A stretch of DNA of 64,000 nucleotides from Marinosulfonomonas sp. (GCA_030625325.1 DAOURA010000001.1:1579-65578); one strand, 5' to 3'; positions 27,968-55,623 are shown, counted from the first letter of the stretch. Notes: generated by a model not told the origin, from the letters alone. A program made the numbers and translations.

Positions 27968-28002
27968 TTAAACGCAAACAACGGGTCGCAAAGGACCCGT
28001 TG
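27968..28002 (-). terminator. rho-independent terminator after the TadG-like gene
   Basis: A perfect 9-bp stem (CAACGGGTC 27979-27987 / GACCCGTTG 27994-28002) has a 6-nt loop. On the minus strand it is followed by TTTGCGTTTA. Confidence 0.6.
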
Positions 28003-28030
28003 TCTGAATTTTCTTAGGTGGTGGGGGGCG

Positions 28031-33134: not shown

Positions 33135-34421
33135 ATGGCTAAACCCCTACGTCTTGGAATTGCCGGGCTTGGCACGGTGGGAACCGGTCTCGTGAAAATT
33201 GTTCAGCGCCACGCCGACCTTCTGGCCGCCCGCACCGGGCGCGCGGTGGTGATTTCTGCCGTTTCTGCCCGCTCGCGTGACAAGGACCGCGGCGTGCGTC
33301 TGGGCGGATATGCCTGGGAAGACGACCCGGTTGCCCTGGCGCAGCGCGACGATGTTGATGTTTTTGTTGAATTGATGGGCGGCGCAGACGGCCCGGCCCT
33401 AACCGCCACGCAGGCGGCGATTGCGGCGGGCAAAGACGTGGTAACGGCCAATAAGGCAATGCTGGCGCTGCATGGCAACGAACTGGCCAGTGCCGCCGAG
33501 GCCGCCGATCTGGTTATCCGCTTTGAGGCCGCCGTTGCCGGGGGCATCCCGGTTGTCAAAGCCCTAAGCGAAGGGCTGGCCGCGAATGAGATCGCCCGGA
33601 TCATGGGGGTGATGAATGGCACCTGCAATTTCATCCTGACCAAAATGGAAGCCGAGAACCTGACCTATGATGCGGTTTTCGCCGAGGCAGACAGCCTTGG
33701 CTATCTGGAAGCCGACCCGACACTGGATGTCGGGGGGATTGACGCGGGGCACAAACTGTCACTGCTGGCGTCGATAGCCTTTGGCACAAAGGTTGATTTT
33801 GACGCCGTTCGTCTGGAAGGCATCGAAAAGATCACCATCGAAGACATCGAACAGGCGGCCGATATGGGCTATCGCATCAAATTGCTGGGGGTTGCACAGA
33901 TGTCAGGGCGTGGGCTGGAACAGCGCATGTCGCCCTGCCTTGTGCCCGCCAGCAGCCCATTGGGCCAGTTGGAAGGCGCAACAAATATGGTGGTTCTGAA
34001 CGGCGACGCCGTGGGGCAGATTGTGTTGCGCGGCGCCGGTGCCGGTGAAGGCCCAACCGCCAGCGCCGTGATGGCCGACGTGATGGATATTGCACGCGGC
34101 ATTCGGGTTTCCACCTTTGGGCAACCCGCCGCCAGCCTGACACAGGCCAAAACCGCAGGGTCCAACGTGCCTGCCCCCTATTACCTGCGCATGCAGCTAA
34201 AGGACAAACCCGGCGCACTGGCCAAGATTGCAACGGTGCTGGGGGATAGCGGAATTTCTATTGATCGGATGCGTCAGTACAGCCACAGCGACCCAACCGC
34301 ACCGGTATTGATTGTCACCCATAAAACCAGCCGCCCGGCCCTGGGCGAAGCGATTGCCGCGATGGCCGCAACCGGGGTTTTGGCGGGGGAGCCAGTAGCG
34401 TTGCGCATCGAAGAAGTCTGA
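33135..34421 (+). CDS. hom: homoserine dehydrogenase
   Basis: LRLGIAGLGTVGTG is the NAD motif. The catalytic domain and a C-terminal ACT domain are present. Length is 428 aa. Confidence 0.93.
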   Translation: MAKPLRLGIAGLGTVGTGLVKIVQRHADLLAARTGRAVVISAVSARSRDKDRGVRLGGYAWEDDPVALAQRDDVDVFVELMGGADGPALTATQAAIAAGKDVVTANKAMLALHGNELASAAEAADLVIRFEAAVAGGIPVVKALSEGLAANEIARIMGVMNGTCNFILTKMEAENLTYDAVFAEADSLGYLEADPTLDVGGIDAGHKLSLLASIAFGTKVDFDAVRLEGIEKITIEDIEQAADMGYRIKLLGVAQMSGRGLEQRMSPCLVPASSPLGQLEGATNMVVLNGDAVGQIVLRGAGAGEGPTASAVMADVMDIARGIRVSTFGQPAASLTQAKTAGSNVPAPYYLRMQLKDKPGALAKIATVLGDSGISIDRMRQYSHSDPTAPVLIVTHKTSRPALGEAIAAMAATGVLAGEPVALRIEEV

Positions 34422-34436
34422 CGACACGCCCCAATA

Positions 34437-34514
34437 GCGCGCCTGACGGCGCATTTTTATAAGCCCTTCGGGCGATTACGCTCCGCGCGGGGATATTTGG
34501 CGAAAAAGAAGCGG
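34437..34514. repeat. intergenic repeat element, full-length copy C (left edge of the glycan island)
   Basis: GCGCGCCTGACGGCGCATTTTTATAAGCCCTTCGGGCGATTACGCTCCGCGCGGGGATATTTGGCGAAAAAGAAGCGG aligns with 22741-22816. Confidence 0.7.
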
Positions 34515-34524
34515 TTAGCGTATT

Positions 34525-35832
34525 TCACCATAACGGGCCAAAAGCGCGGAACTGTATTGCTTCAAGTATGACGGCATTCGTATTCAGGGTGTAGACTTTG
34601 TTTGTTTCCTGACTGTCTTCATATATTCCAGCGGGCCAGCCATCTGTGGCTGAACCGAGGGGGGCGATATAGTCCATCAGGTCCGATGTGTATTTCGTAT
34701 CAAAGATAGCATCCCAAGCGAAAACTGCCTTTAGGCTAAGGGTGCGTTTGTCGGGGTGCGCCTCTCCGCTTTCGGCAAGTACGGCCCATTCAACGCCATC
34801 ACTATAAACCGAAGAATACAAAAAATATGGTGGTTGGTCGATGTGATCTTCTGAAACCATCGTCGGAATGCCAGTCCGCTTGAAGCGCGCTTCCTGTGCC
34901 AAGTATATATGTTCGGCCAGTATGCGGCTTTCACTATCAAACCCATATTCCAGCCCCTGAAGAATATAAGGTTCACTGAGCGTGGGGGAAATTGCCTGAA
35001 AGGACGCAGATTGTCGCAAATCAATGGGGATTTCCACGCCTTCAACAGTTTCCCATTCCATGATGCGGCGGGCGGAAAAGGCAAGGCCAACATCCATTCC
35101 CCACATGGCAGCGGCGCGGGCACCGTATTGTTCATATCCGATCCGCCCTTCCTGACGTGATACCAGTACGCCGCCTTCACGGTTTGTACCGATCAGGTCC
35201 CCCCGGTGGGCCATTGCACCAAGGTCCCATTTATTGACAACACTTCGAATATTATCGCCGTACTGGGGCGCATGCCGTTCCAGCACCCGGAATGACAACA
35301 GCATTCTGGAAACATCCAGCGCCGACCACCCTATACCATTTTCTTCGATCCCATTTTCGTAATTCACCATTGCAAGGGATTGGGTATTATAGACCTTATT
35401 AGGCAACTGACCATCCACCAGATCAAGCAATAAAAATGATTGTAAAAGCCTGGATACCCTTTCATCAAAGCCCTGTTCATCAAGAATTTTCAGCCTGTAT
35501 GCAGACACAAGCGCCATCAGGTAAGAACCCTGATCCCACAAGGTGCTTGATGCAATGCCGGCGACCGCGTTGGCCAGGCCGGTTTCAGGGTTGGTATTAT
35601 CTTTGAAATACGCCCAGGCAATTTGCGCCGCCTGCCGGTCCGCCTTGGACAGGGGGCGTTCACCGGGCACCTCAAGCAATAATGGCTGGGTAAGGTTGAT
35701 GCGCTCTGTGTCTGAAACCGAAACCAATCGGGCCGCACCATCCAGATAAATTGCGGCACCAATTGCGATAAGCAATCCGGCGATGAAAAACAGCGGTGAC
35801 CTGGAGGTCGGAATATTATGCGTTTTGGGCAT
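34525..35832 (-). CDS. membrane-anchored periplasmic protein, DUF3131-like (paralogue A)
   Basis: An N-terminal TM anchor (LFFIAGLLIAIGAAIY) is present. The blocks ETGLANAV, LPNKVY, QEGRIGYEQY, LQGLEYGFD, YFLYSSVYSDG and NTNAVILEA are shared with 40420-42108. The family name is from memory and was not verified. Confidence 0.7.
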   Translation of the reverse strand: MPKTHNIPTSRSPLFFIAGLLIAIGAAIYLDGAARLVSVSDTERINLTQPLLLEVPGERPLSKADRQAAQIAWAYFKDNTNPETGLANAVAGIASSTLWDQGSYLMALVSAYRLKILDEQGFDERVSRLLQSFLLLDLVDGQLPNKVYNTQSLAMVNYENGIEENGIGWSALDVSRMLLSFRVLERHAPQYGDNIRSVVNKWDLGAMAHRGDLIGTNREGGVLVSRQEGRIGYEQYGARAAAMWGMDVGLAFSARRIMEWETVEGVEIPIDLRQSASFQAISPTLSEPYILQGLEYGFDSESRILAEHIYLAQEARFKRTGIPTMVSEDHIDQPPYFLYSSVYSDGVEWAVLAESGEAHPDKRTLSLKAVFAWDAIFDTKYTSDLMDYIAPLGSATDGWPAGIYEDSQETNKVYTLNTNAVILEAIQFRAFGPLW

Positions 35833-37603
35833 TTAACAGGCCTCCGGCTGGTGGTTTTTTTCGTTTGTTCATGTGGGGGCCCGGGGGGGTCCATAAACTC
35901 ATCCTGATGATTTTCACAAAGGAAAGCCCGCCCCAGAAAATCCAGAATAAATTAACAACCAAAAGGGAACTGCTATAGCCTTTGATGTGTAACATTGTTG
36001 AAAATACCCCCCAAATCACCGCAACCAAAAACAGCAACAGCACCATGATGGCCGGTATCGCATAACGCATTCTTTGCGTTGCAAATAACGTTTTTGGGGT
36101 GGTCGGAAACCCCAGTTTTTTTTGGCGAAGAACCTGGAAAAGCCCTTTGATTTGCAATGGGATGGTCGCAATGGCCATCACCCGGCCAGCATGGGTACTG
36201 TAGCCCTTGCAGGCAACATGCATGGCCAGTTCGTTCACCAGCAATGCAGGCAATAAATGCACAAAAAATTCAAGCGAGAACGCCTTAACCGGCGACAGGG
36301 CCGTAAACAGGGAAACCACGGGCGCAAACAACAAAACCGGCATCCAAAGCACAGCAAGGTATGACCAGAATGTTGCGCCATAGTGCAGTTTGGTTGCCGC
36401 CGGTATGCCCCCCATCAATAACGGGTTGGCCCTGAGCATGATATCAAAGGTTCCGCCAGCATATTTCAACCGCTGGGTAGACCAGGCCTGCATGGTCATG
36501 GGCGAAAGCATCCGGGCCTCAATATCCGGGTGAAATACCGATTTCCACCCGCGGGCCTGCATCAAAATGGATGTATAGATGTCTTCCGAAACATGGAATT
36601 TGTAAGGCTCAAGCTGAACCATGTGCAGTACAGATTTTTCGCCAATGCGCTTTTTTATTTTATGAACTTGCTGGCCTTTATAATGCAGCGCATTTGAAAA
36701 CACGGCCTCACGGCGGTGTATTGACCCCGCACCACAGCAAAACGATGCATTATTCCGGTTTCTGCGCCGTTGTATAATATCAAAAAAGATCACCGGGTCC
36801 GAAAGAAACGGATCCCGCCCTATTTTCTGTTCTCCGGTGATAAACCCCATAATTCGCACCAGATAGGGGCGAAGGGCGCCGGGAACCGGGCTTAAGACCG
36901 CCATCCAGTCCCGCCCTTGCGGGATATCATAAAACCACTGGGGGGTTTGAACCCATGCAACTTTTGGATCCCGGAAATACCCCAGAGTATTCATAAGAAA
37001 CCCTGGGAAGACACGCGTATCCGCATCGCAGATCAGAACAAAGTCACCCCTGGTCTGCATAAGTGCGCTGCAAAGATTGCCGGCTTTGTACCCGATATTA
37101 TTTTCCCGCCGCAGGTAATTAACCTGCTGCCGGTTTGCCAGGTCGCGCATGCAATCGCGGCCCCCGTCATCAAGAACATGAATACTCAGGCTGACACCGG
37201 CAGGAAGTTTCAGCGCCTTTGCATCAGTAATAGATGGCCCGACAATATCAGTGCTTTCATCGAAGGTGGTTATAAACAGGTCCACGGTGATGTTGCCATC
37301 ATCTTCAAGGTGGGCATCGCGCCGACAACCGGGCGGGGGGGCTTTGGGGGTGTCCTGTTCACGCCATATGTCATGAAAAGACAAAACCGTGCCGATGAAA
37401 GCCATAGTCTCGGCAATGGCGACACTAACTGAAAAAACCATAGCGTCCGGGTTTAACGAAGCCGTCCAGCGCCAGTGCAGATACCACAGGGCCAACCCGG
37501 CAGTCAGCCCCGCCAGCACATGCCAAAGACCGTGCCGAAATGGGGACATATAGGTGGTTGCGGGGGGGCGGACATGATCAAATGCCCTGAAGTAAGGCTT
37601 CAT
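35816..37603 (-). CDS. BcsA-like processive family-2 glycosyltransferase (membrane-embedded glycan synthase) without a PilZ domain
   Basis: The motifs are colinear with cellulose synthase: LDDGGRD, GYKAGN, CDADT, VQTPQWF, FCCGAGSIHRR, VSEDIYTS and QRLKYAGG (in place of QxxRW). Two N-terminal TM helices and several C-terminal ones are present. Confidence 0.82.
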   Translation of the reverse strand: MKPYFRAFDHVRPPATTYMSPFRHGLWHVLAGLTAGLALWYLHWRWTASLNPDAMVFSVSVAIAETMAFIGTVLSFHDIWREQDTPKAPPPGCRRDAHLEDDGNITVDLFITTFDESTDIVGPSITDAKALKLPAGVSLSIHVLDDGGRDCMRDLANRQQVNYLRRENNIGYKAGNLCSALMQTRGDFVLICDADTRVFPGFLMNTLGYFRDPKVAWVQTPQWFYDIPQGRDWMAVLSPVPGALRPYLVRIMGFITGEQKIGRDPFLSDPVIFFDIIQRRRNRNNASFCCGAGSIHRREAVFSNALHYKGQQVHKIKKRIGEKSVLHMVQLEPYKFHVSEDIYTSILMQARGWKSVFHPDIEARMLSPMTMQAWSTQRLKYAGGTFDIMLRANPLLMGGIPAATKLHYGATFWSYLAVLWMPVLLFAPVVSLFTALSPVKAFSLEFFVHLLPALLVNELAMHVACKGYSTHAGRVMAIATIPLQIKGLFQVLRQKKLGFPTTPKTLFATQRMRYAIPAIMVLLLFLVAVIWGVFSTMLHIKGYSSSLLVVNLFWIFWGGLSFVKIIRMSLWTPPGPHMNKRKKPPAGGLLNAQNA

Positions 37604-39102
37604 TGTGCTTTTGCTGCCTGTGTTTGATCACGCCCGGCGTCCGGGGCTGTTGTGCGCGCCTCACCAACATATTCCAGAGGGTCCATGTTTTGGGGGCTTC
37701 CATCCGCAAACTGAATGGCAACCGACCAATTCGGGTGGGTTATCTGACCATCAATAATGGCCCCTTTCTGAACATGGGTGTTGGGCATGACCATGCTGTT
37801 ACGCACAATACTGCGCCCACTTATGATGGCCCCGCGCCCAATAACTGCGGGGCCTTCTATTTTTGCCCCTGCTGAAATCTTTGCGCCGGGGCCAATATAG
37901 CATGGGCCAGATATTTTGGCCCGCCGTGATATAATGGCGTCCTTGTCCACCCATTGCAGCGGGTTTCGCAAAACCCCCTCGGGGGTGGCATTGGGAACAT
38001 GGCCGCCCAAAACCGACACGGCAGCCGCAAAATAGTCTTTTGCGCATCCTATATCTGTCCAGGAAAAGCCCTGGCTATAGGCATGCATTGCACCGCCGGC
38101 ATCCATAATGCGCGGCAACAGGTCGGCGCCAATATCCTGATCATGCATTTCCTGCATCAGTGACAAAACACGCGGGTTAAAAATATAAATCCCGGTATTT
38201 GCCAGTGTAGAATCTATGGTTCCACGGGCAGGCTTTTCTTTGAACCTAAGAATACGGCCATTCACATCAACATCTATCATCCCGTATTTATGGGTTTTAT
38301 CGGAAGGAACGCTAAGTGTGGCGATGGTTACATCTGCATCGGTTCTTTGATGCTGGGCCAGCATATCGGCCAGATCTATGTCGATAAGCGCATCACCACA
38401 AACGACCAGAAAGTCGGAATTAAACGCGTTGTGATCTGCTTGCAGCTTCCTGATGGTAGAGGCGGAGCCAAGCGGGCCTGGCTTCCATATTCCATTCCAG
38501 TAATTCCCTTCGTTCAGATAAAAAACAGACTGAAACGGTCTGGAATTTTTTGCAAAATAACTATGAATTTGCGGCCCAAGATGGCCGGGATTCAGAAAAA
38601 CTTCCCTTATGCCAAAGCTTTCAAGGTGGTCCAGTATGCGCGCAAGCACGGGTTTTCCCAGCATGTCCAGCATTGGTTTTGGCACTTCATCACTCAAAGG
38701 TGCCAGCCGCGCGCCCCTACCTGCACACAGCACCAGCACCCGCAGGTCCGCCAACTGGCAGGCACGAAACTGTGGTGCTTTCAGGACATGCTGCACATCA
38801 TCAAAGTGCTGGATGGAATGTTCAAGATTTCCGGCCACCAGACGCCGGATGATGCTGTTTGAAAGGCTGCACAGGGCCGCAGGTATCGCATGGGGGCGGG
38901 ACACCATTTCAACCAGAGAGGTTATGCCACTTATACTTACCCGTGAAACTTTTGCGCAATCCAGAATGACAAGGCGCTTTCCCTGTTGCTGCAGGCGAAA
39001 TATGATCCGCTCCAGTGCCGCCAGGGAATCTGTATGCACCAATGGGCCAAAAACCTTAATCACGGCCACGCAATCACCGCGGGCTTCAATTTCAAACACC
39101 AT
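37600..39102 (-). CDS. STAS domain fused to a sugar-1-phosphate nucleotidyltransferase with a left-handed beta-helix C-terminus
   Basis: Residues 1-110 or so look like an anti-sigma antagonist (VAVIKVFGPLVHTDSLAALERII...LVILDCAKVSRVSISGITSLVEMV). Next comes LCAGRGARLAPLSDEVPKPML, the GxGxRxxPL..PK NTP-transferase signature. The C-terminus has hexapeptide repeats (GPGAKISAGAKIEGPAVIGRGAIISG). Confidence 0.8.
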   Translation of the reverse strand: MVFEIEARGDCVAVIKVFGPLVHTDSLAALERIIFRLQQQGKRLVILDCAKVSRVSISGITSLVEMVSRPHAIPAALCSLSNSIIRRLVAGNLEHSIQHFDDVQHVLKAPQFRACQLADLRVLVLCAGRGARLAPLSDEVPKPMLDMLGKPVLARILDHLESFGIREVFLNPGHLGPQIHSYFAKNSRPFQSVFYLNEGNYWNGIWKPGPLGSASTIRKLQADHNAFNSDFLVVCGDALIDIDLADMLAQHQRTDADVTIATLSVPSDKTHKYGMIDVDVNGRILRFKEKPARGTIDSTLANTGIYIFNPRVLSLMQEMHDQDIGADLLPRIMDAGGAMHAYSQGFSWTDIGCAKDYFAAAVSVLGGHVPNATPEGVLRNPLQWVDKDAIISRRAKISGPCYIGPGAKISAGAKIEGPAVIGRGAIISGRSIVRNSMVMPNTHVQKGAIIDGQITHPNWSVAIQFADGSPQNMDPLEYVGEARTTAPDAGRDQTQAAKAQ

Positions 39103-40236
39103 TTATGCTTTCTCCGGCTTGGCAGGGATGGCCCTGCTGTAGCCTGGCAATGGCCCAAGGCCGATCGTCCATGCAAACAGGGATGAACGGCGCAGTACAA
39201 CGACCAGAACACCGGTTGCCGGCAGCACCACGCCAATTTTCACCAACACCTGCAGCGTCGGTGAAAGGCCGCGGCCATGAATACCGATTTCAGCAAGATC
39301 AAGAAAAATGGGGTGGCACAGGTAAATGCCAAATGAATAGGGCGCTATACGGGACAAAACCAACGGCCAGTTGCGGTGCGCCAGTGACATGGCCCCCAGA
39401 AACAACAGCACCGGCATCAAAAAATCGGCCCAGTACCCAGGTAAATAGTCAAACGGCCACACGCCCGTTTCAATGGTCCTTTGGGTGGCAATCAGCTTTA
39501 ATAAAAACAGTACAAGCCCTGCAAACAACACCGGGGGGAACCAGCCCCCCATACCTTTGCCCCCTGCCCGCTTCCACAGCCCAAGTGCGGCCCCCGCGAC
39601 AAGGCCATACCCAATATATGTGATGATTTTGGTGATTCTTACCAGATAGGGCAGCGCCTCAGTCCCCCAGTGATTCTGGTAAATATAACCATCAACCTGT
39701 TGGCGGAGCATAAGACATATAAAAACCCCCAGCCCCAGCAAAGGATAGCGAATTGCCAGACGGTATATTGGATAAAACAGCACCAGACCAAATAAGGTCG
39801 GAATAAAATGCATGTGGTACTTAACACTGCCTAAAATAGCGTAACCAACCCACTTTTCCGGGTTCAGAAGGTCATTCACAACCGAATCGTAATAGCCAAA
39901 TGCGTTGGCCTTTATCAATCCGTAAAAGGCGTAAAACAGTGTCCAGAATGCAAAGGGAACCAGTAAACGGCGCGATTGCTCGGCCAGTGTCTGGCGATAG
40001 GTTCGTGGTGTTTTTTCATGGGCCAGAAGCAAAAGGAAAAGCGCGATTATCAGAAAAAGCTCTGTGCGGGCGGTATAAACAACGGCCCGCAACAGCATTG
40101 GCCCCACTCTCTCGGATTGACTATAGGCAACCCACGGCTGGCCGGTGGGGTCGGCGGTGGCATGCAGGACAACTATCGATATGCCGGCTGTAATTCGCAC
40201 CGCATCAATCCAGATTTGCCGATCATCTTTTTGCAT
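39103..40236 (-). CDS. acyltransferase family 3 integral membrane protein (O-acyl/succinyl transferase type)
   Basis: IWIDAVRITAGISIVVLH is the N-terminal motif. The protein has about 10 TM helices and is 377 aa. It is the first gene of the minus-strand operon. Confidence 0.78.
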   Translation of the reverse strand: MQKDDRQIWIDAVRITAGISIVVLHATADPTGQPWVAYSQSERVGPMLLRAVVYTARTELFLIIALFLLLLAHEKTPRTYRQTLAEQSRRLLVPFAFWTLFYAFYGLIKANAFGYYDSVVNDLLNPEKWVGYAILGSVKYHMHFIPTLFGLVLFYPIYRLAIRYPLLGLGVFICLMLRQQVDGYIYQNHWGTEALPYLVRITKIITYIGYGLVAGAALGLWKRAGGKGMGGWFPPVLFAGLVLFLLKLIATQRTIETGVWPFDYLPGYWADFLMPVLLFLGAMSLAHRNWPLVLSRIAPYSFGIYLCHPIFLDLAEIGIHGRGLSPTLQVLVKIGVVLPATGVLVVVLRRSSLFAWTIGLGPLPGYSRAIPAKPEKA

Positions 40237-40304
40237 TGGTACCCTCCTGGTTGCCCACCTGACTTGGAGAGAATTAGAAAAAATTTAGTGAACGTTCTGC
40301 GATT

Positions 40305-40324
40305 TATACAATTTTTTTTGTATA
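40305..40324. promoter_or_regulatory. palindrome in the divergent control region of the glycan island
   Basis: TATACAA-TTTTTT-TTGTATA has perfect 7-bp arms. It sits in a 183-bp A+T-rich spacer between the two divergent operons. Confidence 0.35.
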
Positions 40325-40419
40325 ATCCGGATCAGGCCGGTACGGATCGGAACTCTTGGTGGAATATTAACTATTACTCACGAAAACCCCTGCTAACGCA
40401 TGACTACAGTGGATATTTC

Positions 40420-42108
40420 ATGAGCAACCCAGAAAACAAACCCGATCGCTTAAACCTTGGCCGTGGTATCATTATTTTTTTGGTATCCATATCAATTTTA
40501 ATTGGGGCCACCTGGTCTGTTGCTTCGTTCGCCCGCATCCTGTTTTTGAGCCACGAAGAAATAAACCCGATAATTGCCGGTGGGGACCTGGACGATTTAC
40601 CTGCATTGATGCGGGGTAATATTTCGACCGTCACAACCAGCATGGTTCGGGGCGAACCGGTGCGGGTTAAACCGCCGCGCATGTGTGAAATGTCGCCCAC
40701 CTATTTTGACAATTTGGACAAGGGCCTGAAACAGCCGGTCGGGTACACCCGCCGAAATGAATATGTCAGCCCCTATCGTGCCCGCCGTGGTTTCCTGAAC
40801 GAACGTGAAATGCAAGCCGCGCGTGTGGCCTGGTTGTATTTTGAAACCTACACTCAGGAAGAAACCGGGCTGGCCAATGCGGTGGGCAATTACCCATCAA
40901 CCACAATGTGGGATACGGCCTCTTATATTGCGGCAACCGTTGCGGCATATGAACTGTGCATTATTGAAAAACCGGAACTTGACCAGCGCCTGTTTCAACT
41001 ACTGGCCACCATGAAAACACTTGATCTGTTTCGCAAGGAACTACCTAATAAAGTGTACCATACCCGCACAGCAGCCAAGGTGGACTATGCGAATAAACCG
41101 GGGGAAATTGGCTTCTCCGGGCTGGACCTTGGTCGTATGCTTATCTGGCTTCGCATCATCAAAAACCGCTATCCTTACCTTGGTAATTCAGTCGATGCCA
41201 TTTTGCTTAAATGGGATTTCAGAAATGTCATCGGGGAACAGGGGCTGATTTATGGCGCGCGCATCAACAGCGAAACAAATGAAACCATCTATGATCAGGA
41301 AGGGCGCCTTGGGTATGAAGAATATGCCGCCAAAGGCTATGCGCTTTGGGGCTTCAAGCCAATACTTGCCCACCGGGCCGAGCCATTTCTGACGGCTTCG
41401 ATCTACGGTATTCAGGTCCCCTATGACGGCCGTGATCCGCGGATTTTTCATTCTCAGAACTACGTTGTAACCGAATCCTACCTGCAGGACGGGTTGGAGC
41501 TTGGCTTTGACATGGTCCACGATGACAGCAGCCCCGACTGGCTGCGATCGGATGGGTGGCGCGGCGAATTTGCCGACCGGATTTATAACGTGCAGGAAAA
41601 TCGCTGGCGCCAGACCGGGTTCATGACTGCGCGCTCGGAACATAACGTAAAGGGTGCGCCCTATTTCACATATGATACAATTTTTTCTGATGGTTACCCC
41701 TGGAACACGGTAACCCCACGGGGGGATTATGTACCGGATCATGCCGCTATTTCATCCAAAGCAGCGCTTGGGATGTGGGCGCTTTGGGATACCGACTATA
41801 CCAACATTCTTTATGAAGCGATTATTGAGCTCTACAACCCGGAAAAAGGTATGTTTGAAGGGCTGTATGAACGCGGTCAGGGCCGGGTGGAAATTTTCAC
41901 CGCAAATAACAACGGGATCATTCTAACGGCCCTGTTGCATAAAGTTCAGGGAAAAATACTGACCCCATACACCGGTGATGCAGAGGTCTGGTATACCGCA
42001 TTTCGCGATCAAAACATCCGGGAACGCCGTCACTATCCTGATCCCCCGCAAGAAGATGACTGGCTTCCCGCCTTGCGCCATTCCATCCAGAACAAGGAAG
42101 ACTTTTAA
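40420..42108 (+). CDS. membrane-anchored periplasmic protein, DUF3131-like (paralogue B, longer)
   Basis: The start was moved to the ATG at 40420 (MSNPENKPDRLNLGRGIIIFLVSISILIGATW, a TM anchor); the tracked ORF from 39976 runs antisense through the acyltransferase gene. The shared blocks are ETGLANAV, LPNKVY, QEGRLGYEEY, LQDGLELGFD, YFTYDTIFSDG and NNNGIILTA. Confidence 0.72.
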   Translation: MSNPENKPDRLNLGRGIIIFLVSISILIGATWSVASFARILFLSHEEINPIIAGGDLDDLPALMRGNISTVTTSMVRGEPVRVKPPRMCEMSPTYFDNLDKGLKQPVGYTRRNEYVSPYRARRGFLNEREMQAARVAWLYFETYTQEETGLANAVGNYPSTTMWDTASYIAATVAAYELCIIEKPELDQRLFQLLATMKTLDLFRKELPNKVYHTRTAAKVDYANKPGEIGFSGLDLGRMLIWLRIIKNRYPYLGNSVDAILLKWDFRNVIGEQGLIYGARINSETNETIYDQEGRLGYEEYAAKGYALWGFKPILAHRAEPFLTASIYGIQVPYDGRDPRIFHSQNYVVTESYLQDGLELGFDMVHDDSSPDWLRSDGWRGEFADRIYNVQENRWRQTGFMTARSEHNVKGAPYFTYDTIFSDGYPWNTVTPRGDYVPDHAAISSKAALGMWALWDTDYTNILYEAIIELYNPEKGMFEGLYERGQGRVEIFTANNNGIILTALLHKVQGKILTPYTGDAEVWYTAFRDQNIRERRHYPDPPQEDDWLPALRHSIQNKEDF

Positions 42109-43262
42109 TGAATAAATCTGTTTTTAAATGTACAATCTCGCTGATATTTTTCTGTGGGCCGGCATTGGCCCAGGACGAAGTCGCCGAATTTTCCCCCGGA
42201 AATGCGATTCTGGACACAACAATTCCCTTTGCCGCCGATGCCCGGGAAGCCGAACAGGCACTACGTGGCGCCTATGGCTGGGCAACATTTCAGGAGGGGG
42301 TGATCGAGGGCATATATTTTCGCTTTGACCCGGACGGATACGCCAGGTTTTCAACAACCCCACGCCTGGATACCGATGTATTCGAAGTGATCTGCACCCC
42401 TAAAACTACGTCCTGTCTGGGGCAAAAGGGGGCTCTAAGCATCCAACTGAATGACCAGGGGGGCCTTCAGTTAACACTTGCGAATATTTCATCCGGCGAT
42501 AATTTTTTTATCGTAGACGACCTTACAGAGCTGTCATTGCCTAACATAATATTACAACCCTTGGATAACCGCCTGGAAGGCTTATTTGCCTCAGGGGGGG
42601 AGCTTCTTGTTCGCCACGGCGCAACAGAAACCCTGCGTATCCCGCTAAGTGGGTTTTCAACTGTCTCCACCTATCTAAGGTGGGTCGCGTCGGGGCAGGA
42701 CGATGCCAGTTTCCCATATGGCTGGCCTGTTTCGGTTTCCAAAACCGTCGCAACAACTGGGGACTTGCCAACCCAGACAAGCAACCAGCAACCCCCGGCG
42801 CGTATAGAACAGGCCATCGCACCGGAAGCTACGGTTTTGAGCGAAACACTTACCAACACGCAGCGTATTGCAGAACTGGAAAACCAAATTGCGGCCCTTT
42901 TGGCCAACAAAACTGAAATATCCAGCCCCCCCCCGGCAGATGCGGAAGCCGTGGATGAAACCAGCAAAGCCACCCCAGACATCAAGGAATTACCCGCCAA
43001 ACCCAGTGAAGCTGAAATCCTGTCAACGCGGTTAAATTACCTGATGACCGAAATAGGTTTGGATTCAGCAAGCGCGCTAACGTTACTTCAGCGGACAAAG
43101 CCACCACAGGCCCCACCCGTCTGCCCGGAAGTTATAGGCGGAAATGTTGCAGACACTGCAACCGAGCCTATGGAGCACCTTCTGCAAAAATTCAGTCGGA
43201 CGGCGCACTCGGGGATAAAAACAATTCTCACGTACTTTCCACGCAAGATTACCCAGCCTTAA
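42108..43262 (+). CDS. secreted hypothetical protein (signal peptide, Pro/Ala-rich linker, coiled-coil-like segment)
   Basis: MNKSVFKCTISLIFFCGPALAQDE is a Sec signal peptide. The ATG overlaps the upstream stop (TAATG). No family was recognised. Confidence 0.6.
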   Translation: MNKSVFKCTISLIFFCGPALAQDEVAEFSPGNAILDTTIPFAADAREAEQALRGAYGWATFQEGVIEGIYFRFDPDGYARFSTTPRLDTDVFEVICTPKTTSCLGQKGALSIQLNDQGGLQLTLANISSGDNFFIVDDLTELSLPNIILQPLDNRLEGLFASGGELLVRHGATETLRIPLSGFSTVSTYLRWVASGQDDASFPYGWPVSVSKTVATTGDLPTQTSNQQPPARIEQAIAPEATVLSETLTNTQRIAELENQIAALLANKTEISSPPPADAEAVDETSKATPDIKELPAKPSEAEILSTRLNYLMTEIGLDSASALTLLQRTKPPQAPPVCPEVIGGNVADTATEPMEHLLQKFSRTAHSGIKTILTYFPRKITQP

Positions 43263-43528
43263 CAAGCTACTTTAAGTCAATATTTACATAAAAATATGCC
43301 GGTGGCCCCAATAACCAAGCGTGTCTCGGTTTAATGCGATTCCCAACGGGCTCGTATAATTCTAAGTGGCCCTGCAAAATTGAACGGTTTGTTAAAATGC
43401 ATCTAAACGAGATGAAGAAGTGCCAAAATGAGGGAACGGCAGAAATTTTCGAATCATGCCGATATCTACTGTTTTTTAACACTATTTTTTTATTGTGAGG
43501 GTGTTTTTACCATATTTGGCGGCAATAC

Positions 43529-45508
43529 ATGTCTAGCTCTGTTCAAAAAATTCCCGGTCATGACAAGACGGCAACCACCAGCATACGCATGGAAACGCCG
43601 TCGGCTGATCCTGTGCATATAATGGATCGAAAAGCACCTGCATGGGCCCTTATCCTCGGCAGTATTTTTTCAGTAGGGGTTTTCTTTTGCCTGGCAAGTG
43701 TCGCCATATTCGCCATCTTTTTTCAAACACTGGTGGTCGGGCGCGGCGAAGACATATTAGCACCTCTGTTGATGATGGTCGCCGTAGTTCCGATGCTAGG
43801 CATTGTTGTTCTGGAATATGCGCACAACAAAATCCTAAGCGGATATCGTCACATTCGCGAACTCAACGCGCGGCGCGCCAGGGCCGCTGCCGGGGTTTTC
43901 GTGTTCGCCACACTGGTATTTTTACACCCACTTGCGGGCGTTGGCATATTGGCGGGAAGCATCGGCGGGCTATTGTTTTTATGGATATTAAGCAGGCTGA
44001 AACGCCGTGAACCCATGTGGGATTTTATCGCACAGGAAGCTGTCCCGATTTTGTCTGGCCGGGATTTTCACGGGTTGGAAATCGCCACACAACCGGCGCC
44101 CGAACATCCACTGGCCGGGGCTGTGCAAATGGCGATGATGGGCATCAGTGTGCTAAGCGCGCTTTCAACCTCCACATGGCTGGTTTCAAATGAGGTACTC
44201 GCCCCGGCCGCAGTTCTGGCGGTTTCCTTGCTGAGCTTATGGTCCACAGACGCGATCCTTGGATACATACGCCAGTTTTTGAAAACACCGCCACTACTTG
44301 ATCGGGCAACATCCCATGTGAACGCTGTGCCCGGATCAATTGAAGACGATGACTTCGCAGGTCTACTGATCAAGAACCTCAGCGTATTTAGCGATGACGG
44401 AAAAATATTAATCTCGGATTTAAACCTTAAAGCGGCCCCCGGCTCCATTACTGGTATTATGGGGGACAGCGGTGCTGGCAAAAGTCTGCTACTGCGGTCA
44501 ATCATTGACCCCTTTTCACTTTCCGGGCTGGAAATTCACGGGAACGTGCGGGTAAATTGCCATGACCTGTGGCACCGGGACGGGCAGCCCCACAGCCTGC
44601 CGGCCACTTATTTGTCCGACAACCCAATAATCTTACCCACCTCAGGCCATCAAAACCTGTCCTGTTTTCACGGTAATCAGGTTCTTGAACGGGGCCGGCG
44701 AATTTTAGAAAAGATGGTTTTTTCATCTGAACTTGCCGAAAAAATTTGCGCCCATAAAAACGCAGAAACCCTGCCCGGAATGCAGAAGAAAATGTTGGCC
44801 GCATCCCGTGCCTTTCTATTAAGCCCGGACCTGTACCTGATCGACGGGCCAGAAGACGGATTACCTGAAAAACAGATATCCATGCTGCTGGCGCAACTGA
44901 AACAAGAAACCAAACTGGGGCGAACTGTACTTCTGGTCACGCAAAACCGGGCCTTAGCCGAAGCCTGCGACACACTGATTATCATGCAGGAAGGCCGGAT
45001 CATAGATGAAGGAACCTCTGCTGAGGTACGAACACGGCAAGCAGCAGGTTGGGCCCGCTTTGTTGGTGAACGAAATCTGAATATAGACGAAAACCTGGAA
45101 ACCTGGGTCAGGTCCCATTTTAAACGTCCAGGCGACGAGATGAACCGCCGAAAGGTCTGCCATATTGCCTCAGAAATGCTTGCACATTCCTGCCAGAGCC
45201 GGAATGCGCTGGTGCAGCAATCCGTTACTTTTGAATTCAAGCACTATGAAGGGTACTGTGAAATCAGCATTCAGGATTCAGACCCGCCGATCAGCGCAGC
45301 GCAGCTGGATAAGGCCCGCCAGTCAATTGAAGATCCAGATGGCGACAGCCGCCTGACACCACTGGCCTTGATCATTGGAAGCAGCCTGTCTGTTGATGCC
45401 AGTTCAGAGCTGGATCAACGCAAAATCCTGGTGAAGGTTGCAACGATTGACCCGCGCAAAAAAGCCCGGGCAAGTCAGGGCAAAGGCACCAACATCAAAA
45501 ACGGCTAA
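43529..45508 (+). CDS. fusion protein: about 6 TM helices, a degenerate ABC-type ATPase domain, and an RsbW/SpoIIAB-like C-terminal domain
   Basis: Walker A is GDSGAGKS and the signature-like motif is LPGMQKKM. Walker B is LYLIDGPEDG (Gly where the catalytic Glu is expected) and the H-loop is LLVTQN (Gln where His is expected). The last ~130 aa follow the anti-sigma kinase pattern (VCHIASEMLAHS...CEISIQDSDPPIS), but the N-box Asn and the G-boxes are not evident. Confidence 0.68.
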   Translation: MSSSVQKIPGHDKTATTSIRMETPSADPVHIMDRKAPAWALILGSIFSVGVFFCLASVAIFAIFFQTLVVGRGEDILAPLLMMVAVVPMLGIVVLEYAHNKILSGYRHIRELNARRARAAAGVFVFATLVFLHPLAGVGILAGSIGGLLFLWILSRLKRREPMWDFIAQEAVPILSGRDFHGLEIATQPAPEHPLAGAVQMAMMGISVLSALSTSTWLVSNEVLAPAAVLAVSLLSLWSTDAILGYIRQFLKTPPLLDRATSHVNAVPGSIEDDDFAGLLIKNLSVFSDDGKILISDLNLKAAPGSITGIMGDSGAGKSLLLRSIIDPFSLSGLEIHGNVRVNCHDLWHRDGQPHSLPATYLSDNPIILPTSGHQNLSCFHGNQVLERGRRILEKMVFSSELAEKICAHKNAETLPGMQKKMLAASRAFLLSPDLYLIDGPEDGLPEKQISMLLAQLKQETKLGRTVLLVTQNRALAEACDTLIIMQEGRIIDEGTSAEVRTRQAAGWARFVGERNLNIDENLETWVRSHFKRPGDEMNRRKVCHIASEMLAHSCQSRNALVQQSVTFEFKHYEGYCEISIQDSDPPISAAQLDKARQSIEDPDGDSRLTPLALIIGSSLSVDASSELDQRKILVKVATIDPRKKARASQGKGTNIKNG

Positions 45509-45613
45509 GAATACGCCCGACAGCGGCATTCTTTCTGATGAAAATAAGTGTTCCGACTTGTGTGGCATAGCCCGGGCGGGCTAGGCTTGGGCCGTGCATT
45601 TATTCAGGATAAT

Positions 45614-46588
45614 ATGATGACCAAATCCATAGAATTCCACGACCGGCTGCTATCACTGGGGCTTGCCCGTGTTTCCGAGGCGGCCGCTATGGCCTCTGCC
45701 CAATTGGTGGGGCGCGGCGACGAAAAGGCGGCCGATCAGGCAGCTGTGAACGCCATGCGGGACCAGTTGAACATGCTGGACATCAAGGGTGTTGTGGTCA
45801 TCGGTGAAGGCGAACGTGACGAGGCCCCCATGCTGTTTATCGGCGAAGAGGTCGGAACCGGCAACGGCCCCGAGGTCGATATTGCCCTTGACCCGCTTGA
45901 AGGCACAACCCTGACAGCCAAGGACATGCCAAATGCCCTGACCGTCATCGCCATGGCACCGCGCGGCACCATGCTGCACGCCCCTGACGTTTACATGGAT
46001 AAGCTGGCCATTGGGCCGGGCTATCCAGAGGACGTGGTGTCCTTTGACATGGCCCCGGCCGAACGTGTGCGCGCCCTGGCAAATGCCCGCGGTTGTCAGG
46101 ATCGCGACATTACCGTTTGCATTCTGGAACGCCCCCGCCACGAAGACCTGATCGCCGAAGTGCGCGACACCGGTGCTGCGATCCGCCTGATCACCGACGG
46201 CGATGTGGCCGGTGTGATCCACTGCGCTGAGGCCGAAAAAACCGGTATTGATATGTATATGGGCTCAGGTGGTGCACCCGAAGGCGTTCTGGCCGCCGCA
46301 GCCCTGCGCTGTATGGGCGGGCAAATGTGGGGCCGCCTGATATTTCGCAATGACGACGAACGTGGCCGCGCGCGCAAGGCCGGGATCAGCGACTTTGACA
46401 GGGTCTATTCCCGCGATGATCTGGTAACGCAAGACGTTATCTTTGCCGCCACGGGCGTAACGGACGGTTCAATCGTGCGGGGCATTCGCCGCGAGCCGGG
46501 TTTTCTGGAAACCGAGACCATCCTGATGCGTTCCAAAACCGGGTCAGTGCGGCGCATGAGCTATCGCAATCCGGTCAGGCCTGAATGA
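45614..46588 (+). CDS. glpX: class II fructose-1,6-bisphosphatase
   Basis: LGLARVSEAAAMASAQLVGRGDEKAADQAAV and VVIGEGERDEAPML are GlpX blocks. The start was moved to the ATG at 45614. Confidence 0.92.
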   Translation: MMTKSIEFHDRLLSLGLARVSEAAAMASAQLVGRGDEKAADQAAVNAMRDQLNMLDIKGVVVIGEGERDEAPMLFIGEEVGTGNGPEVDIALDPLEGTTLTAKDMPNALTVIAMAPRGTMLHAPDVYMDKLAIGPGYPEDVVSFDMAPAERVRALANARGCQDRDITVCILERPRHEDLIAEVRDTGAAIRLITDGDVAGVIHCAEAEKTGIDMYMGSGGAPEGVLAAAALRCMGGQMWGRLIFRNDDERGRARKAGISDFDRVYSRDDLVTQDVIFAATGVTDGSIVRGIRREPGFLETETILMRSKTGSVRRMSYRNPVRPE

Positions 46589-48339
46589 ACCAACGGGCCT
46601 TTCTTGATGTCAAAACATCCCTGAGCGGGCGGCGCTGGGTCGGCCCCACCCCCGAGGCCACCCGCCAGTGCGAAGCGATGGAACAGGCAACCAACCTGCC
46701 TGTTCCCCTGTGCCACACATTGGTGCGTCAGGGCGTGTCACCGCAGGATGCACAACCATACCTGTCACCGTCCCTGCGCGATTTACTGCCAGACCCAACA
46801 AAGCTGTTGGATATGGGGCCAGCCGCAGAGCGGTTTCTGGCCGCCTTTAAGGCCCGTGAAAAAATTGCAATCTTTGCTGATTATGATGTGGATGGCGCCA
46901 CATCGGCGGCCCTGATCCTGAATTGGCTGGGGGCAATGGGGCACCGGGCCACCCTTTATGTGCCGGACCGGATCAAAGAAGGCTACGGTCCGAACGATCG
47001 CGCCATGTTTGAACTGGCCAAAGACCACGACCTGATTATCACGGTGGATTGCGGCGCCCTGTCCCATGGGCCAATTGCGGCGGCCAAGGGCGCAGATGTG
47101 ATTGTGCTGGATCACCACCTTGGCGGTGAAACCCTGCCCCCGGCCCACGCGGTGGTAAACCCCAACCGTCAGGACGAAAGTGGCGAACTGGCCCACCTGT
47201 GCGCCGCCGGTGTGGTGTTTTTGTTTCTGGTAGAGGCAAACCGCCGCCTGCGTGCCGATAAAATCAGTGGCCCCGACCTGATGGGCTATCTTGATCTGGT
47301 GGGCCTTGCCACGGTGGCCGATGTGGCCCCCCTTATCGGGGTAAACCGGGCCTTTGTGCGTCAGGGCCTGAAAGTCATGGCAAACCGCCAGCGCCCCGGT
47401 CTGGTGGCACTGGGGGATATTGCGAAACTGGACACGGCCCCCACAGCCTATCATCTGGGCTTCGTTCTGGGGCCACGGATCAATGCAGGCGGGCGGGTTG
47501 GCCGGGCTGATCTGGGCGCGCGCCTTTTGGCCACAGGCGACAAGAATGAAGCAGAATCAATCGCCGCCAAGCTGGAGCAGCTAAACGCTGAGCGGCGCGA
47601 AATTGAAAGTGCAGTACAAGGCGCGGCACTGGAACAGGCCGAAGAACGGGGCTTTGACGCGCCACTGGTCTGGGCGGCGGGGGAAGGCTGGCACCCCGGC
47701 GTGGTGGGCATCGTTGCCTCACGCCTGAAGGAACTGACCAACCGCCCAGCACTGGTGATCGGGCTGGACGGCGACGAAGGCAAGGGATCAGGGCGTTCCG
47801 TATCAGGCATTGATCTGGGGGCCGCGATCCAACGCCTGACATCCGAAGGATTACTGCTAAAGGGCGGCGGGCACAAAATGGCCGCCGGGCTAAGTGTGGC
47901 GCGCGATCAGTTGGAACCGGCAATGGCGCGACTGGCGGAATTGCTGCAAAAACAGGGGGCCGGTGATCTGGGGCCACGCGATTTGCGCCTTGATGGCGTG
48001 CTGATGTCGGGCGCGGCCAGTGTGGAACTGGTGCAGCAAATCGAACAGGCTGGCCCCTTTGGTGCCGGTGCCCCTGCCCCCAGATTTGCATTCCCCGATC
48101 AGGAAATCCGGTTTTGCAAACGGGTTGGCGCGTCCCACCTAAAGCTAAGCTTTGCCGACGGTCCGGGGGCGGTAATCGACGCAATCTGCTTTGGGGCCTA
48201 TGACGGGCCACTGGGGGGAATGATTGAAAATCACGGCGGCAAACGCTTTCATCTGGCTGGCCGCTTAGAAATTAACACATGGGGTGGGCGCAGCCGGGTT
48301 CAGCTGCGTCTGGAAGACGCCGCACCTGCCAGTGAATAA
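46585..48339 (+). CDS. recJ: single-stranded-DNA-specific exonuclease RecJ
   Basis: DHH motifs (IFADYDVDGATS, DHH at VLDHHL) and DHHA1 (GGGHKMAAG) are present. Length is 584 aa. Confidence 0.93.
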   Translation: MNQRAFLDVKTSLSGRRWVGPTPEATRQCEAMEQATNLPVPLCHTLVRQGVSPQDAQPYLSPSLRDLLPDPTKLLDMGPAAERFLAAFKAREKIAIFADYDVDGATSAALILNWLGAMGHRATLYVPDRIKEGYGPNDRAMFELAKDHDLIITVDCGALSHGPIAAAKGADVIVLDHHLGGETLPPAHAVVNPNRQDESGELAHLCAAGVVFLFLVEANRRLRADKISGPDLMGYLDLVGLATVADVAPLIGVNRAFVRQGLKVMANRQRPGLVALGDIAKLDTAPTAYHLGFVLGPRINAGGRVGRADLGARLLATGDKNEAESIAAKLEQLNAERREIESAVQGAALEQAEERGFDAPLVWAAGEGWHPGVVGIVASRLKELTNRPALVIGLDGDEGKGSGRSVSGIDLGAAIQRLTSEGLLLKGGGHKMAAGLSVARDQLEPAMARLAELLQKQGAGDLGPRDLRLDGVLMSGAASVELVQQIEQAGPFGAGAPAPRFAFPDQEIRFCKRVGASHLKLSFADGPGAVIDAICFGAYDGPLGGMIENHGGKRFHLAGRLEINTWGGRSRVQLRLEDAAPASE

Positions 48340-55368: not shown

Positions 55369-55397
55369 TCCTTCCTGCAACTTCAAGGTAATATTAA

Positions 55398-55427
55398 CGC
55401 GGGGCCCTCGGGCCCCGTGTTTCGTTT
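55398..55427 (+). terminator. rho-independent terminator of rplY
   Basis: The stem CGCGGGGCC / GGCCCCGTG surrounds a 4-nt loop and is followed by TTTCGTTT. Confidence 0.7.
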
Positions 55428-55623
55428 GGGGGGGGATGTTTGCGTTATGTGGGCGAAGGGGACTTTCTCTGCGCTTGCACGATTGTTGCATTTCAAATGC
55501 ATAAGATGTGTAAAGTCTAATATTTCATCTGTAGTAATTCCGACTTGATCTGACAGTTGGCGGTTTTTCTGGCGACATCGGTCAGGCCAAGTTTAGTTCA
55601 CGAACTTATCCTTCCAGATATCC

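Follow-up and report, generated by a model that had tools for sequence, protein, structure and literature searches.

A horizontally acquired island between hom and glpX of Marinosulfonomonas sp.: a variant GT2-DUF3131 cluster and candidate envelope beta-glucan locus

Layout of the locus

The locus considered here lies in a 64,000-nucleotide (nt) stretch of Marinosulfonomonas sp. DNA (GCA_030625325.1, DAOURA010000001.1:1579-65578; below, the window), where an A+T-rich island at positions 34,422-45,613 separates hom from glpX. It combines a BcsA-like synthase of glycosyltransferase family 2 (GT2) with two DUF3131 proteins, a nucleotide-sugar pyrophosphorylase, an acyltransferase-3 protein (AT3), a secreted protein and an ABC-type membrane protein; the original prediction had described it as an imported, synthase-type glycan system of no assigned kind. 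Open reading frame (ORF) calls and Pfam searches of the window place seven intact ORFs between hom and glpX, with the coordinates given in that prediction, whose domain calls were every one confirmed by Pfam. The genes and the intergenic region are as follows.

33135-34421: hom, left flank of the island
34525-35832, minus strand: DUF3131_A, 435 amino acids (aa), Pfam PF11329, E=3e-123
35816-37603, minus strand: GT2 synthase, 595 aa, Pfam GT2 families
37600-39102, minus strand: STAS::NTP_transferase::LbH fusion, 500 aa, Pfam STAS (1.7e-8) and NTP_transferase (2.5e-37)
39103-40236, minus strand: Acyl_transf_3 protein (AT3), 377 aa, Pfam PF01757, E=7e-26
40237-40419: divergent intergenic region between both operons, A+T-rich (GC 0.42)
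40420-42108, plus strand: DUF3131_B, 562 aa, Pfam PF11329, E=4e-115
42108-43262, plus strand: secreted family X protein (unk384), 384 aa, no Pfam, NCBIfam or PDB match
43529-45508, plus strand: TM::ABC::RsbW-fold protein (TM, transmembrane), 659 aa, Pfam ABC_tran, C-terminal domain recognized by Foldseek
45614 or 45617 (start): glpX, right flank of the island
46585-48339: recJ, beyond glpX

The genes form two divergent, packed operons, as had been described. The minus-strand operon begins with AT3 and proceeds through the STAS::NTP_transferase::hexapeptide fusion and the GT2 gene to DUF3131_A, with one abutting junction and overlaps of 4 and 17 nt. The plus-strand operon leads from DUF3131_B to family X (TAATG overlap) and, after a gap of 266 nt, to the TM::ABC::RsbW-fold gene. 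The start of DUF3131_B is placed at ATG 40420, because its orthologues (L087-L095) have 562 aa; the mechanical ORF opens at 39976. A promoter scan of the island gave 14 promoter-like sites against 13.2 expected, and a terminator scan likewise did not exceed chance.

Foreign composition and the insertion site

The island is a horizontally acquired insertion, judging from its composition, the empty junctions of relatives and the occurrence of its gene set at other chromosomal sites. Its GC content is 0.512 against 0.559 in the remainder of the window, and the lowest-GC segment of 11.2 kb in the 64 kb begins at 34401. At the gene level, GC is 0.51-0.52 and GC at third codon positions (GC3) 0.52-0.58 in the island genes, compared with 0.61 and 0.64-0.69, respectively, in hom, glpX and recJ. 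Measured by tetranucleotides, the island lies 0.0177 from the remainder of the window, about twice as far as every other segment of the same size (0.006-0.010). The A+T-richness relative to the flanks, first noticed by eye, is thus borne out by sliding GC and tetranucleotide analysis. Other 1-kb segments with GC below 0.50 (0.489-0.493) are found at 18001-19000, 28001-29000 and 55001-56000.

The hom-glpX junction was scanned in one genome per species, which gave 80 Rhodobacterales loci with Hom 72-80% identical. About 65 of them have hom, glpX and recJ in one uninterrupted run, in agreement with the native order given in the original prediction, and the hom-glpX gap is usually 50-200 nt. Island genes downstream of hom were found in none of the 80 loci, which together with the non-native composition upholds the imported origin that had been proposed.

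Shimia, Cognatishimia, HTCC2150 and metagenome-assembled genomes (MAGs) carry the same gene set elsewhere on the chromosome. It lies beside ribonucleotide reductase in Shimia sp. MIT910701 (CP138953, locus L087), adjoins a restriction-modification cluster in Cognatishimia activa and dus/ruvX in HTCC2150, and in MAGs is found in one case beside nadABC and in another beside xerC and insertion sequence (IS) elements. On MAG contig ctg340582 (1-22001, L091), the cluster is split around a housekeeping lptC-lptA-lptB-rpoN-hpf-ptsN block, with the ABC fusion, HlyD-type gene, long DUF3131, family X and GH16 genes on one side and GT2 on the other.

The island stops right after the ABC gene, 105 nt short of glpX, and an independent sequencing run holds a 99-100%-identical copy with the identical ABC-glpX junction. 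Neither an integrase nor a tRNA was found at the island edges in the window; the closest tRNA (Glu, 48412) is located past recJ. The hom-glpX site is variably occupied in relatives (L004, L009, L010, L017, L020, L026, L033, L035, L038, L043, L055 and L063), which suggests an insertion hotspot. The inserts there are of 1-3 kb (IS transposases in L038) or larger unrelated blocks, such as that of L004 with unrelated genes including a flagellar switch and a histidine kinase.

The GT2 synthase

The GT2 protein has two N-terminal and approximately 4-5 C-terminal TM segments and ends about 30 aa past the last one. Its closest solved relative is BcsA (E=1e-26). Aligned to E. coli BcsA (7LBY), it matches in the TFDE, DDG, KAGN, DAD, QTP, FCCGxGS and SED motifs, and QxxRW is replaced with QRLKY; this QxxKY variant is held by aa ~376-383 of the window's protein. 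Q(R/K/Q)xKYAGG replaces QxxRW in 11 of 12 cluster GT2s, namely in all 11 proteobacterial proteins compared (the window, L001, L002, L083, L084, L087, L090 and L092-L095), while Nostoc retains QRLRW. QxxKY may mark synthases with another acceptor geometry or linkage.

The NCBIfam CelA model matches the GT2 protein with E=3e-49 and 168 bits, far under its cut-off of 699, and MdoH gives E=0.003 and 16 bits against a cut-off of 884. Among the seven proteins there is no Pfam match to PilZ, BcsB, BcsC or GH8, nor to the MdoG family (OpgG/OpgD, GH186). The absence of BcsB/BcsC/PilZ and of OpgG/H, which the original prediction had pointed out, is confirmed by these searches.

DUF3131 proteins and their fold

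DUF3131_A consists of an N-terminal membrane anchor (aa ~13-34) followed by a predicted (alpha/alpha)6 barrel; in DUF3131_B, a linker of ~90 aa separates the N-terminal anchor from the same (alpha/alpha)6 domain. The two proteins are 35% identical, and both keep all family-invariant residues. Since basic residues precede the N-terminal TM helix (positive-inside rule), the catalytic domains are predicted to be periplasmic.

A single DUF3131 sequence gave no match against PDB, and a family profile was needed. The only significant PDB matches of the profile are to the GH189 domain of cyclic glucan synthase (the Cgs cyclisation domain, E=5e-7), the alignment spanning only the first ~100 residues of the barrel. 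The AlphaFold2 model of DUF3131_A (pLDDT 92) superposes on Cgs with a TM-score of 0.65, and its top 19 Foldseek PDB matches all belong to GH144, GH162, GH189 and GH192-194 (E 4e-11 to 1e-6, TM-score 0.58-0.66). These include 8XUJ and 8XUK, placed in GH192-194 as a group; GH192-194 are newer families of the beta-1,2-glucanase clan (PMC12102758). GH15 and GH8 (BcsZ) come next in the list with E>2e-5 (GH8 E>3e-5). By its modelled fold, DUF3131 is placed in the (alpha/alpha)6 beta-1,2-glucanase/transglycosylase (SGL) clan. The original prediction had listed two periplasmic proteins of unknown role; the profile and Foldseek searches now assign a predicted fold to the DUF3131 pair. DUF3131 is a large family; full-text literature searches yielded no functional study of it, and PF11329/IPR021478 gave nothing.

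DUF3131 adjoins a GT2 gene or sits in a GT2-containing cluster in 14/14 sequence-distinct contexts. Even the outliers with 24-29% identity (Sulfitobacter, Mesorhizobium) directly follow a glycosyltransferase gene, and so GT2-DUF3131 is regarded as a conserved unit. In Shimia sp. MIT910701 (L087, 8127-9814), the long DUF3131 is split into ORFs of 499 and 62 aa, and a near-identical metagenome contig (L088) has an intact ORF of 562 aa; the split is either a frameshift or a sequencing error.

The characterised relatives of the DUF3131 fold are all glucanases, except GH189 (PMC12102758), and GH16 genes flank the cluster in three loci. Both observations could be accommodated by a catabolic or remodelling locus degrading environmental (e.g., algal) beta-glucans, with GT2 and the pyrophosphorylase unrelated to it. 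However, Pfam and NCBIfam searches of the island gave no sugar importer, TonB-dependent receptor, glucosidase/phosphorylase or catabolic regulator, translational coupling with a processive synthase is seen for the DUF3131 genes in all contexts, and a dedicated nucleotide diphosphate (NDP)-sugar pyrophosphorylase and O-acyltransferase are biosynthetic. The catabolic explanation was rejected on account of the missing uptake and downstream catabolic genes, and it is extremely improbable.

Pyrophosphorylase, acyltransferase and family X

In the STAS fusion, the STAS domain occupies aa ~5-104 (nt 38791-39090), and the catalytic and LbH part aa 119-441 (nt 37780-38748). The best solved relative of the latter is 8X7S (E=3e-59, 34% identity over 324 columns), labelled by its depositors as UTP--glucose-1-phosphate uridylyltransferase. 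GDP-mannose and ADP-glucose enzymes score E~1e-24 or worse, the match to 8X7S being 35 orders of magnitude better than those to the GDP-mannose enzymes. The architecture of the catalytic and LbH part is that of the cyanobacterial CugP type of UDP-glucose pyrophosphorylase. The fusion enzyme thus appears most like a UDP-glucose pyrophosphorylase, and its substrate specificity we infer from homology.

AT3, an integral membrane protein, has its orthologue in the acyltransferase that occupies the corresponding place in the clusters of SC52 and Pseudooceanicola (36-38% identity), and tblastn detects no similarity between it and the Paracoccus protein annotated as OpgC. It is the probable O-acyltransferase of the glycan.

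Family X has a Sec signal peptide, a conserved N-terminal domain of ~200 aa and a low-complexity tail. It comprises 154 representatives in a 50%-clustered library, always follows the long DUF3131 gene, and in five loci the gene at that position is its orthologue. Searches against Pfam, NCBIfam and PDB profiles gave no match for the family; PG_binding_1 is found in 5 of 29 distant members.

The wider module and its roseobacter variant

The original prediction could not map the island to a characterised polysaccharide locus. No characterised match was found in this analysis either, but the island does not stand alone: it represents one variant of a module that is widespread and uncharacterised. 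GT2 orthologues of 41-45% identity are encoded on plasmids and chromids of Paracoccus, Pseudooceanicola, Rhodobacteraceae SC52, Sphingobium, Vibrio, Pantoea, Chimaeribacter and Salmonella, with more distant relatives in Nostoc. The core of the canonical neighbourhood is GT2, 2-3 DUF3131 and AT3/OpgC. The canonical clusters also hold a full partner switch, that is, a free STAS protein (DSSG), an RsbW-like protein (E..N..H N-box, GRG) and a SpoIIE phosphatase, often with sensor kinases or GAF, globin and H-NOX domains. The enterobacterial version is part of Salmonella genomic island SGI3 (PMC3401170), and the Klebsiella pneumoniae accessory block 3b carries the module as well (PMC12974863), in both cases without a functional study. 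The acyltransferase of the Salmonella version is annotated as OpgC (PMC3401170), as is the Paracoccus copy.

The free switch genes are missing from the window and from Shimia, Cognatishimia, HTCC2150 and several MAGs, where two fusions take their place. The STAS::pyrophosphorylase fusion forms ~90 clusters, all of Rhodobacterales, and the STAS::NTP and ABC::RsbW fusions co-occur in 5/5 loci where both positions are readable (the window, L087, L092, L094 and L095). The roseobacter consensus comprises 8-9 genes: an OmpA-like gene; AT3, STAS::NTP, in some copies a 266-aa protein with no assigned role, GT2 and the short DUF3131 in succession; the long DUF3131 followed by family X; and the ABC fusion followed by an HlyD_3 adaptor. 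The adaptor gene follows the ABC gene in the other copies examined (L087, L090, L091 and L095) and is absent from the window, as is the 266-aa gene of the fuller copies.

The OmpA-like gene flanks the cluster in 6/6 loci (L087, L090, L091, L092, L094 and L095), L090 and L091 add Peptidase_C14 (caspase-like) and PG_binding_1 proteins, and GH16 is a neighbour in L087 and L091; none of these is present in the window. Such neighbours hint at a cell-wall-associated function. A distant variant is found on Sulfitobacter indolifex pDSM14862_b (L096, 3292-13427): translational coupling links a 1088-aa glycosyltransferase with an 845-aa DUF3131 protein, and the pair is adjoined by an HlyD adaptor and an ABC permease/ATPase of type I secretion.

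The ABC fusion and the partner-switch parts

The ABC protein consists of TM segments (aa ~36-247), a nucleotide-binding domain (NBD; aa ~280-505, nt 44366-45043) and an RsbW/SpoIIAB-fold domain (aa 508-659, nt 45050-45505). The fusion family numbers 27 clusters, all of Rhodobacterales. Its NBD is closest to those of type I secretion systems (T1SS) and ABCB and resembles HlyB/PrtD; Pfam finds no ABC_membrane (PF00664) domain in 24 family members. Aligned to ABCB4/BSEP, the NBD keeps Walker A and has the Q-loop Gln replaced with Asp, LSGGQ with LPGMQ, Walker B DE with DG and the H-loop His with Gln. The same losses are found in 24/24 family members, with D-R at the Walker B position in most, so that the residues driving hydrolysis (catalytic Glu and H-loop His) are gone family-wide. 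The putative role of an energising ATPase, suggested for this protein in the original prediction, is therefore doubtful. The accompanying claim that the island lacks an NdvA/ChvA-type exporter architecture holds in part: the half-transporter order of transmembrane domain (TMD) and NBD is present, yet the NBD is catalytically degenerate and PF00664 is missing.

The C-terminal domain had been called RsbW-like by eye, and its fold bears this out. The AlphaFold2 model of the C-terminal 152 aa (pLDDT 87) gives SpoIIAB 1TIL/1L0O (E 5e-6, TM-score 0.6-0.65), RsbW 6M37 (TM-score 0.72) and UsfX at the top of the Foldseek list. No Pfam kinase (HATPase) domain is found at the C-terminus of the 24 members, and the N-box Asn and the G2 glycines are absent from the RsbW-fold domain. 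The phosphorylatable serine of STAS domains follows a conserved Asp; in SpoIIAA and RsbV, the serine at that position is phosphorylated. The position holds I, F, M, L or R in 18/18 fusion proteins aligned, as against DSSG in the STAS proteins of canonical clusters. Homologues of SpoIIE, STAS or RsbW were not found elsewhere in the 64-kb window, nor was a SpoIIE homologue in five related loci.

With all catalytic motifs of the switch and the NBD degenerate, and the HlyD-type and 266-aa genes of fuller copies missing, the island could be taken for a decaying, non-functional remnant: imported, truncated at its right end, dead in its regulatory parts and without a product. However, the degenerate motifs are themselves conserved in 24 ABC-fusion and 18 STAS-fusion proteins (36-66% identity), which argues for selection for a changed function and not for decay. 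All seven ORFs are intact and tightly coupled, the invariant residues of GT2 and DUF3131 are all kept, and the nearly identical copy with the same glpX junction comes from an independent sequencing run. Decay is thus a very unlikely explanation.

Comparison with known systems

The system resembles the Cgs, OpgH/OpgG and NdvB routes and partner-switch-regulated polysaccharide systems, yet it does not belong to any of them. In common with Cgs, it has a putative glucan polymerase coupled to a predicted (alpha/alpha)6 chain-processing domain, and a TMD-NBD half-transporter-type protein is located alongside. Unlike in Cgs, the polymerase of the island is a BcsA-like GT2 and not GT84, and GH94 is absent from the seven proteins (Pfam). 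The processing enzymes of the island are separate, membrane-anchored and predicted to be periplasmic, whereas those of Cgs are cytoplasmic domains of one giant protein. Compared with the MsbA-like ABC exporter of such a system, which has an ABC_membrane TMD and a competent NBD, the island protein has no PF00664 TMD, its catalytic site is degenerate, and it carries an RsbW-fold domain.

The osmoregulated periplasmic glucan (OPG) system (OpgH, OpgG/OpgD and OpgC) follows the logic proposed for the island, with a membrane GT2 exporting glucan, periplasmic processing enzymes and an AT3 O-acyltransferase. The island, however, lacks an OpgH-like GT2 and OpgG/D, its processing enzymes belong to another fold family, and its AT3 is unlike Paracoccus OpgC. 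NdvB with a GH17 domain is another polymerase-plus-processing route to envelope glucans, beside Cgs and OpgH/OpgG.

Orthology to the S. meliloti aps and bgs loci or the Agrobacterium crd, ndv and opg loci was rejected. The GT2 protein is less than 30% identical to matches on Sinorhizobium and Agrobacterium replicons, and OpgH, OpgG and GT84 are unmatched. The GT2 matches on 94 Sinorhizobium and 32 Agrobacterium replicons rank under the listed full-length matches, which end at ~26-29% identity, and tblastn with DUF3131 (E<1e-5) found no match on the replicons of these genera in PLSDB.

The partner switches (SpoIIAA/SpoIIAB/SpoIIE; RsbV/RsbW/RsbU) have in common with the island a STAS domain and a GHKL anti-sigma-kinase fold (SpoIIAB/RsbW) in one locus. 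They differ in that both island domains are fused to effectors, that the phospho-Ser, N-box Asn, G2 box and PP2C phosphatase are missing, and that no sigma factor is involved. A STAS domain on a polysaccharide enzyme can be a regulated output, as in All4160 of Anabaena, where STAS is fused to a glycosyltransferase (PMC13555669).

Islands with a cellulose synthase, three DUF3131, OpgC and anti-sigma/antagonist genes, as in SGI3, Klebsiella, Pantoea pDSJ10, Paracoccus, Vibrio and Nostoc plasmids, share GT2 (41-45% identical) and DUF3131 (35-45% identical) with the window, and the order DUF3131-AT3-GT2-DUF3131 occurs in Rhodobacterales plasmids. SGI3-type islands have free STAS, RsbW and SpoIIE and no pyrophosphorylase or ABC fusion, whereas the window has both fusions, family X and only two DUF3131.

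The bacterial cellulose synthesis (Bcs) system is similar in the core GT2 motifs, which align to BcsA, and in an (alpha/alpha)6 accessory enzyme, as in BcsZ. It differs from the island, which lacks PilZ, BcsB and BcsC, has QxxKY for QxxRW and apparently uses partner-switch parts instead of cyclic di-GMP. From a type I secretion-like ABC/HlyD exporter the island differs in its degenerate NBD and in the absence of the HlyD_3 adaptor and of a TolC-like gene.

A rival explanation is a secreted exopolysaccharide (cellulose-like, curdlan-like or of mixed linkage) serving biofilm formation or attachment, with DUF3131 as BcsZ-like trimming hydrolases and export via ABC, HlyD and TolC-like proteins. 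Such a product would accord with a GT2 closest to BcsA, the presence of BcsZ among the DUF3131 Foldseek matches, the GH16 neighbours in three loci, an NBD most like those of T1SS/ABCB, the HlyD_3 adaptor after the ABC gene in L087, L090, L091 and L095, and the T1SS ABC/HlyD pair beside the glycosyltransferase-DUF3131 pair in Sulfitobacter. There is also a precedent in BgsB/TolC, which take mixed-linkage glucan across the outer membrane (PMC13438883). However, the window's copy lacks the adaptor gene, the NBD is without catalytic Glu and His in all members, and DUF3131 is clearly nearer to the beta-1,2-glucan clan (E 4e-11 to 1e-6) than to GH8 (E>3e-5). In addition, 2-3 DUF3131 paralogues per cluster exceed the needs of trimming, and the OpgC-type annotation of the acyltransferase in the enterobacterial and Paracoccus copies points to periplasmic glucans (PMC3401170). 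A secreted polymer is accordingly a rather unlikely alternative, with a sizeable chance of being correct all the same.

Proposed function

The reading to which we incline, by a little better than an even chance, is that the island is an O-acylated envelope beta-glucan locus of the GT2-DUF3131 synthase class, in which phosphorylation-independent docking controls UDP-glucose supply. The polymer itself is very probably a beta-glucan. By homology, the CugP-like domain of the STAS fusion would make UDP-glucose. The BcsA-like GT2 could polymerise the chain and thread it over the inner membrane, as its motifs and topology suggest. The two anchored, periplasm-facing DUF3131 enzymes could cut, transfer or cyclise the nascent chain; this activity and a beta-1,2 linkage are suggested by the fold. 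AT3 would O-acylate the product, and family X might be a periplasmic, possibly peptidoglycan-associated accessory.

Regulation could be realized by an ancestral partner switch that has been hard-wired, with STAS on the pyrophosphorylase and the RsbW fold on the membrane ABC-type protein. Since the switch has lost its phospho-Ser and phosphatase, the kinase its ATP motifs and the ABC protein its catalytic residues, the proposal is that the pyrophosphorylase docks at, or is sequestered by, the membrane protein independently of phosphorylation. Either an envelope signal or the binding of ATP, without its hydrolysis, to the degenerate NBD could gate this docking, which would link the supply of UDP-glucose with the synthase and may activate or inhibit. 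As the window's copy has no HlyD-type adaptor, any export step at the outer membrane may be lacking or provided in trans.

Several points weigh against an O-acylated envelope glucan controlled in this way, whose polymer, linkage and location we infer. The (alpha/alpha)6 fold, in the models, is also common to GH8 BcsZ and GH15, at lower scores. As to the linkage, the DUF3131 fold argues for beta-1,2, but a GT2 that is BcsA-like and not OpgH-like agrees no less well with beta-1,4, beta-1,3 or mixed linkage, and GH16, a repeated neighbour, speaks for beta-1,3 or beta-1,3/1,4. Taken together, GT2 and GH16 argue for beta-1,4, beta-1,3 or mixed. At the sequence level, the C-terminal domain of the ABC protein is only weakly similar to RsbW (phmmer against the cluster RsbW gives only 9 bits, hhalign a probability of 33%). 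The degenerate NBD may hydrolyse ATP slowly or with a partner, and a copy without the HlyD-type and 266-aa genes could be impaired.

A broader proposal may be ventured tentatively, with the odds against it: GT2-DUF3131 might make periplasmic beta-glucans, perhaps cyclic or branched ones, by a route so far unrecognised, in which a BcsA-like synthase passes the nascent chain to separate, membrane-anchored GH189-like transglycosylases, as if Cgs had been split and moved to the periplasm. In roseobacters, the ancestral kinase/phosphatase partner switch would have been turned into a phosphorylation-free docking pair tethering a dedicated UDP-glucose pyrophosphorylase to an ATP-sensing pseudo-ABC membrane protein, which would gate precursor supply at the membrane. 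Mobile islands and plasmids carry the module in Salmonella, Klebsiella, Pantoea, Vibrio, many roseobacters and cyanobacteria. The predicted placement of DUF3131 in the clan and its constant pairing with GT2 provide a testable hypothesis of a new envelope beta-glucan pathway, with soluble domains to assay. In the roseobacter version, a three-protein phospho-switch appears to have collapsed to two domain fusions without any of its catalytic residues; if true, this would be a clear case of partner-switch parts reused for metabolic-enzyme docking, and it would extend the recently found direct control of polysaccharide enzymes by STAS domains. Envelope glucans control osmoadaptation as well as relations with hosts or algae, both relevant to roseobacter ecology.

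Repeats and edge elements

Three short elements lie at the left edge of the island and between its operons.

34439-34462, plus strand: terminator-like hairpin and T-run just past hom, GCGCCTGACGGCGC ATTTTTATAA
34470-34511, plus strand: copy of a dispersed intergenic motif at the left edge (...GCTCCGCGCGGGGATATTTGGCGAAAAAGAAG)
40304-40325: perfect palindrome TTATACAA-N6-TTGTATAA, within the divergent intergenic region

The right arm of the palindrome, TGTATAAT, resembles an extended -10 sequence. Related loci do not conserve the palindrome, and for this reason no regulatory claim is made for it. A 57-nt "inverted repeat" reported by a repeat finder (35099-35155 and 41295-41351) corresponds to the conserved QEGR(I/L)GYE(Q/E)Y coding motif, which the two DUF3131 paralogues carry on opposite strands, and is not a structural element.

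Because the hairpin belongs to the native flank, the left boundary of the island is placed between ~34463 and 34524. The dispersed motif of ~40 nt, GC(C/T)TCCG(G/C)CGGGGATATTT(N)GAAA..., has other copies at ~13463-13510 (plus strand) and ~22836-22880 (minus strand), and a weaker fourth match is located at 59627. Its 14-mer has 4 matches against 0.89 expected, a number reached by 1 of 100 shuffles; the dispersed repeat noticed earlier at the left edge is thus real, but small. The motif probably belongs to the native flank and may be a REP-like element of the host.

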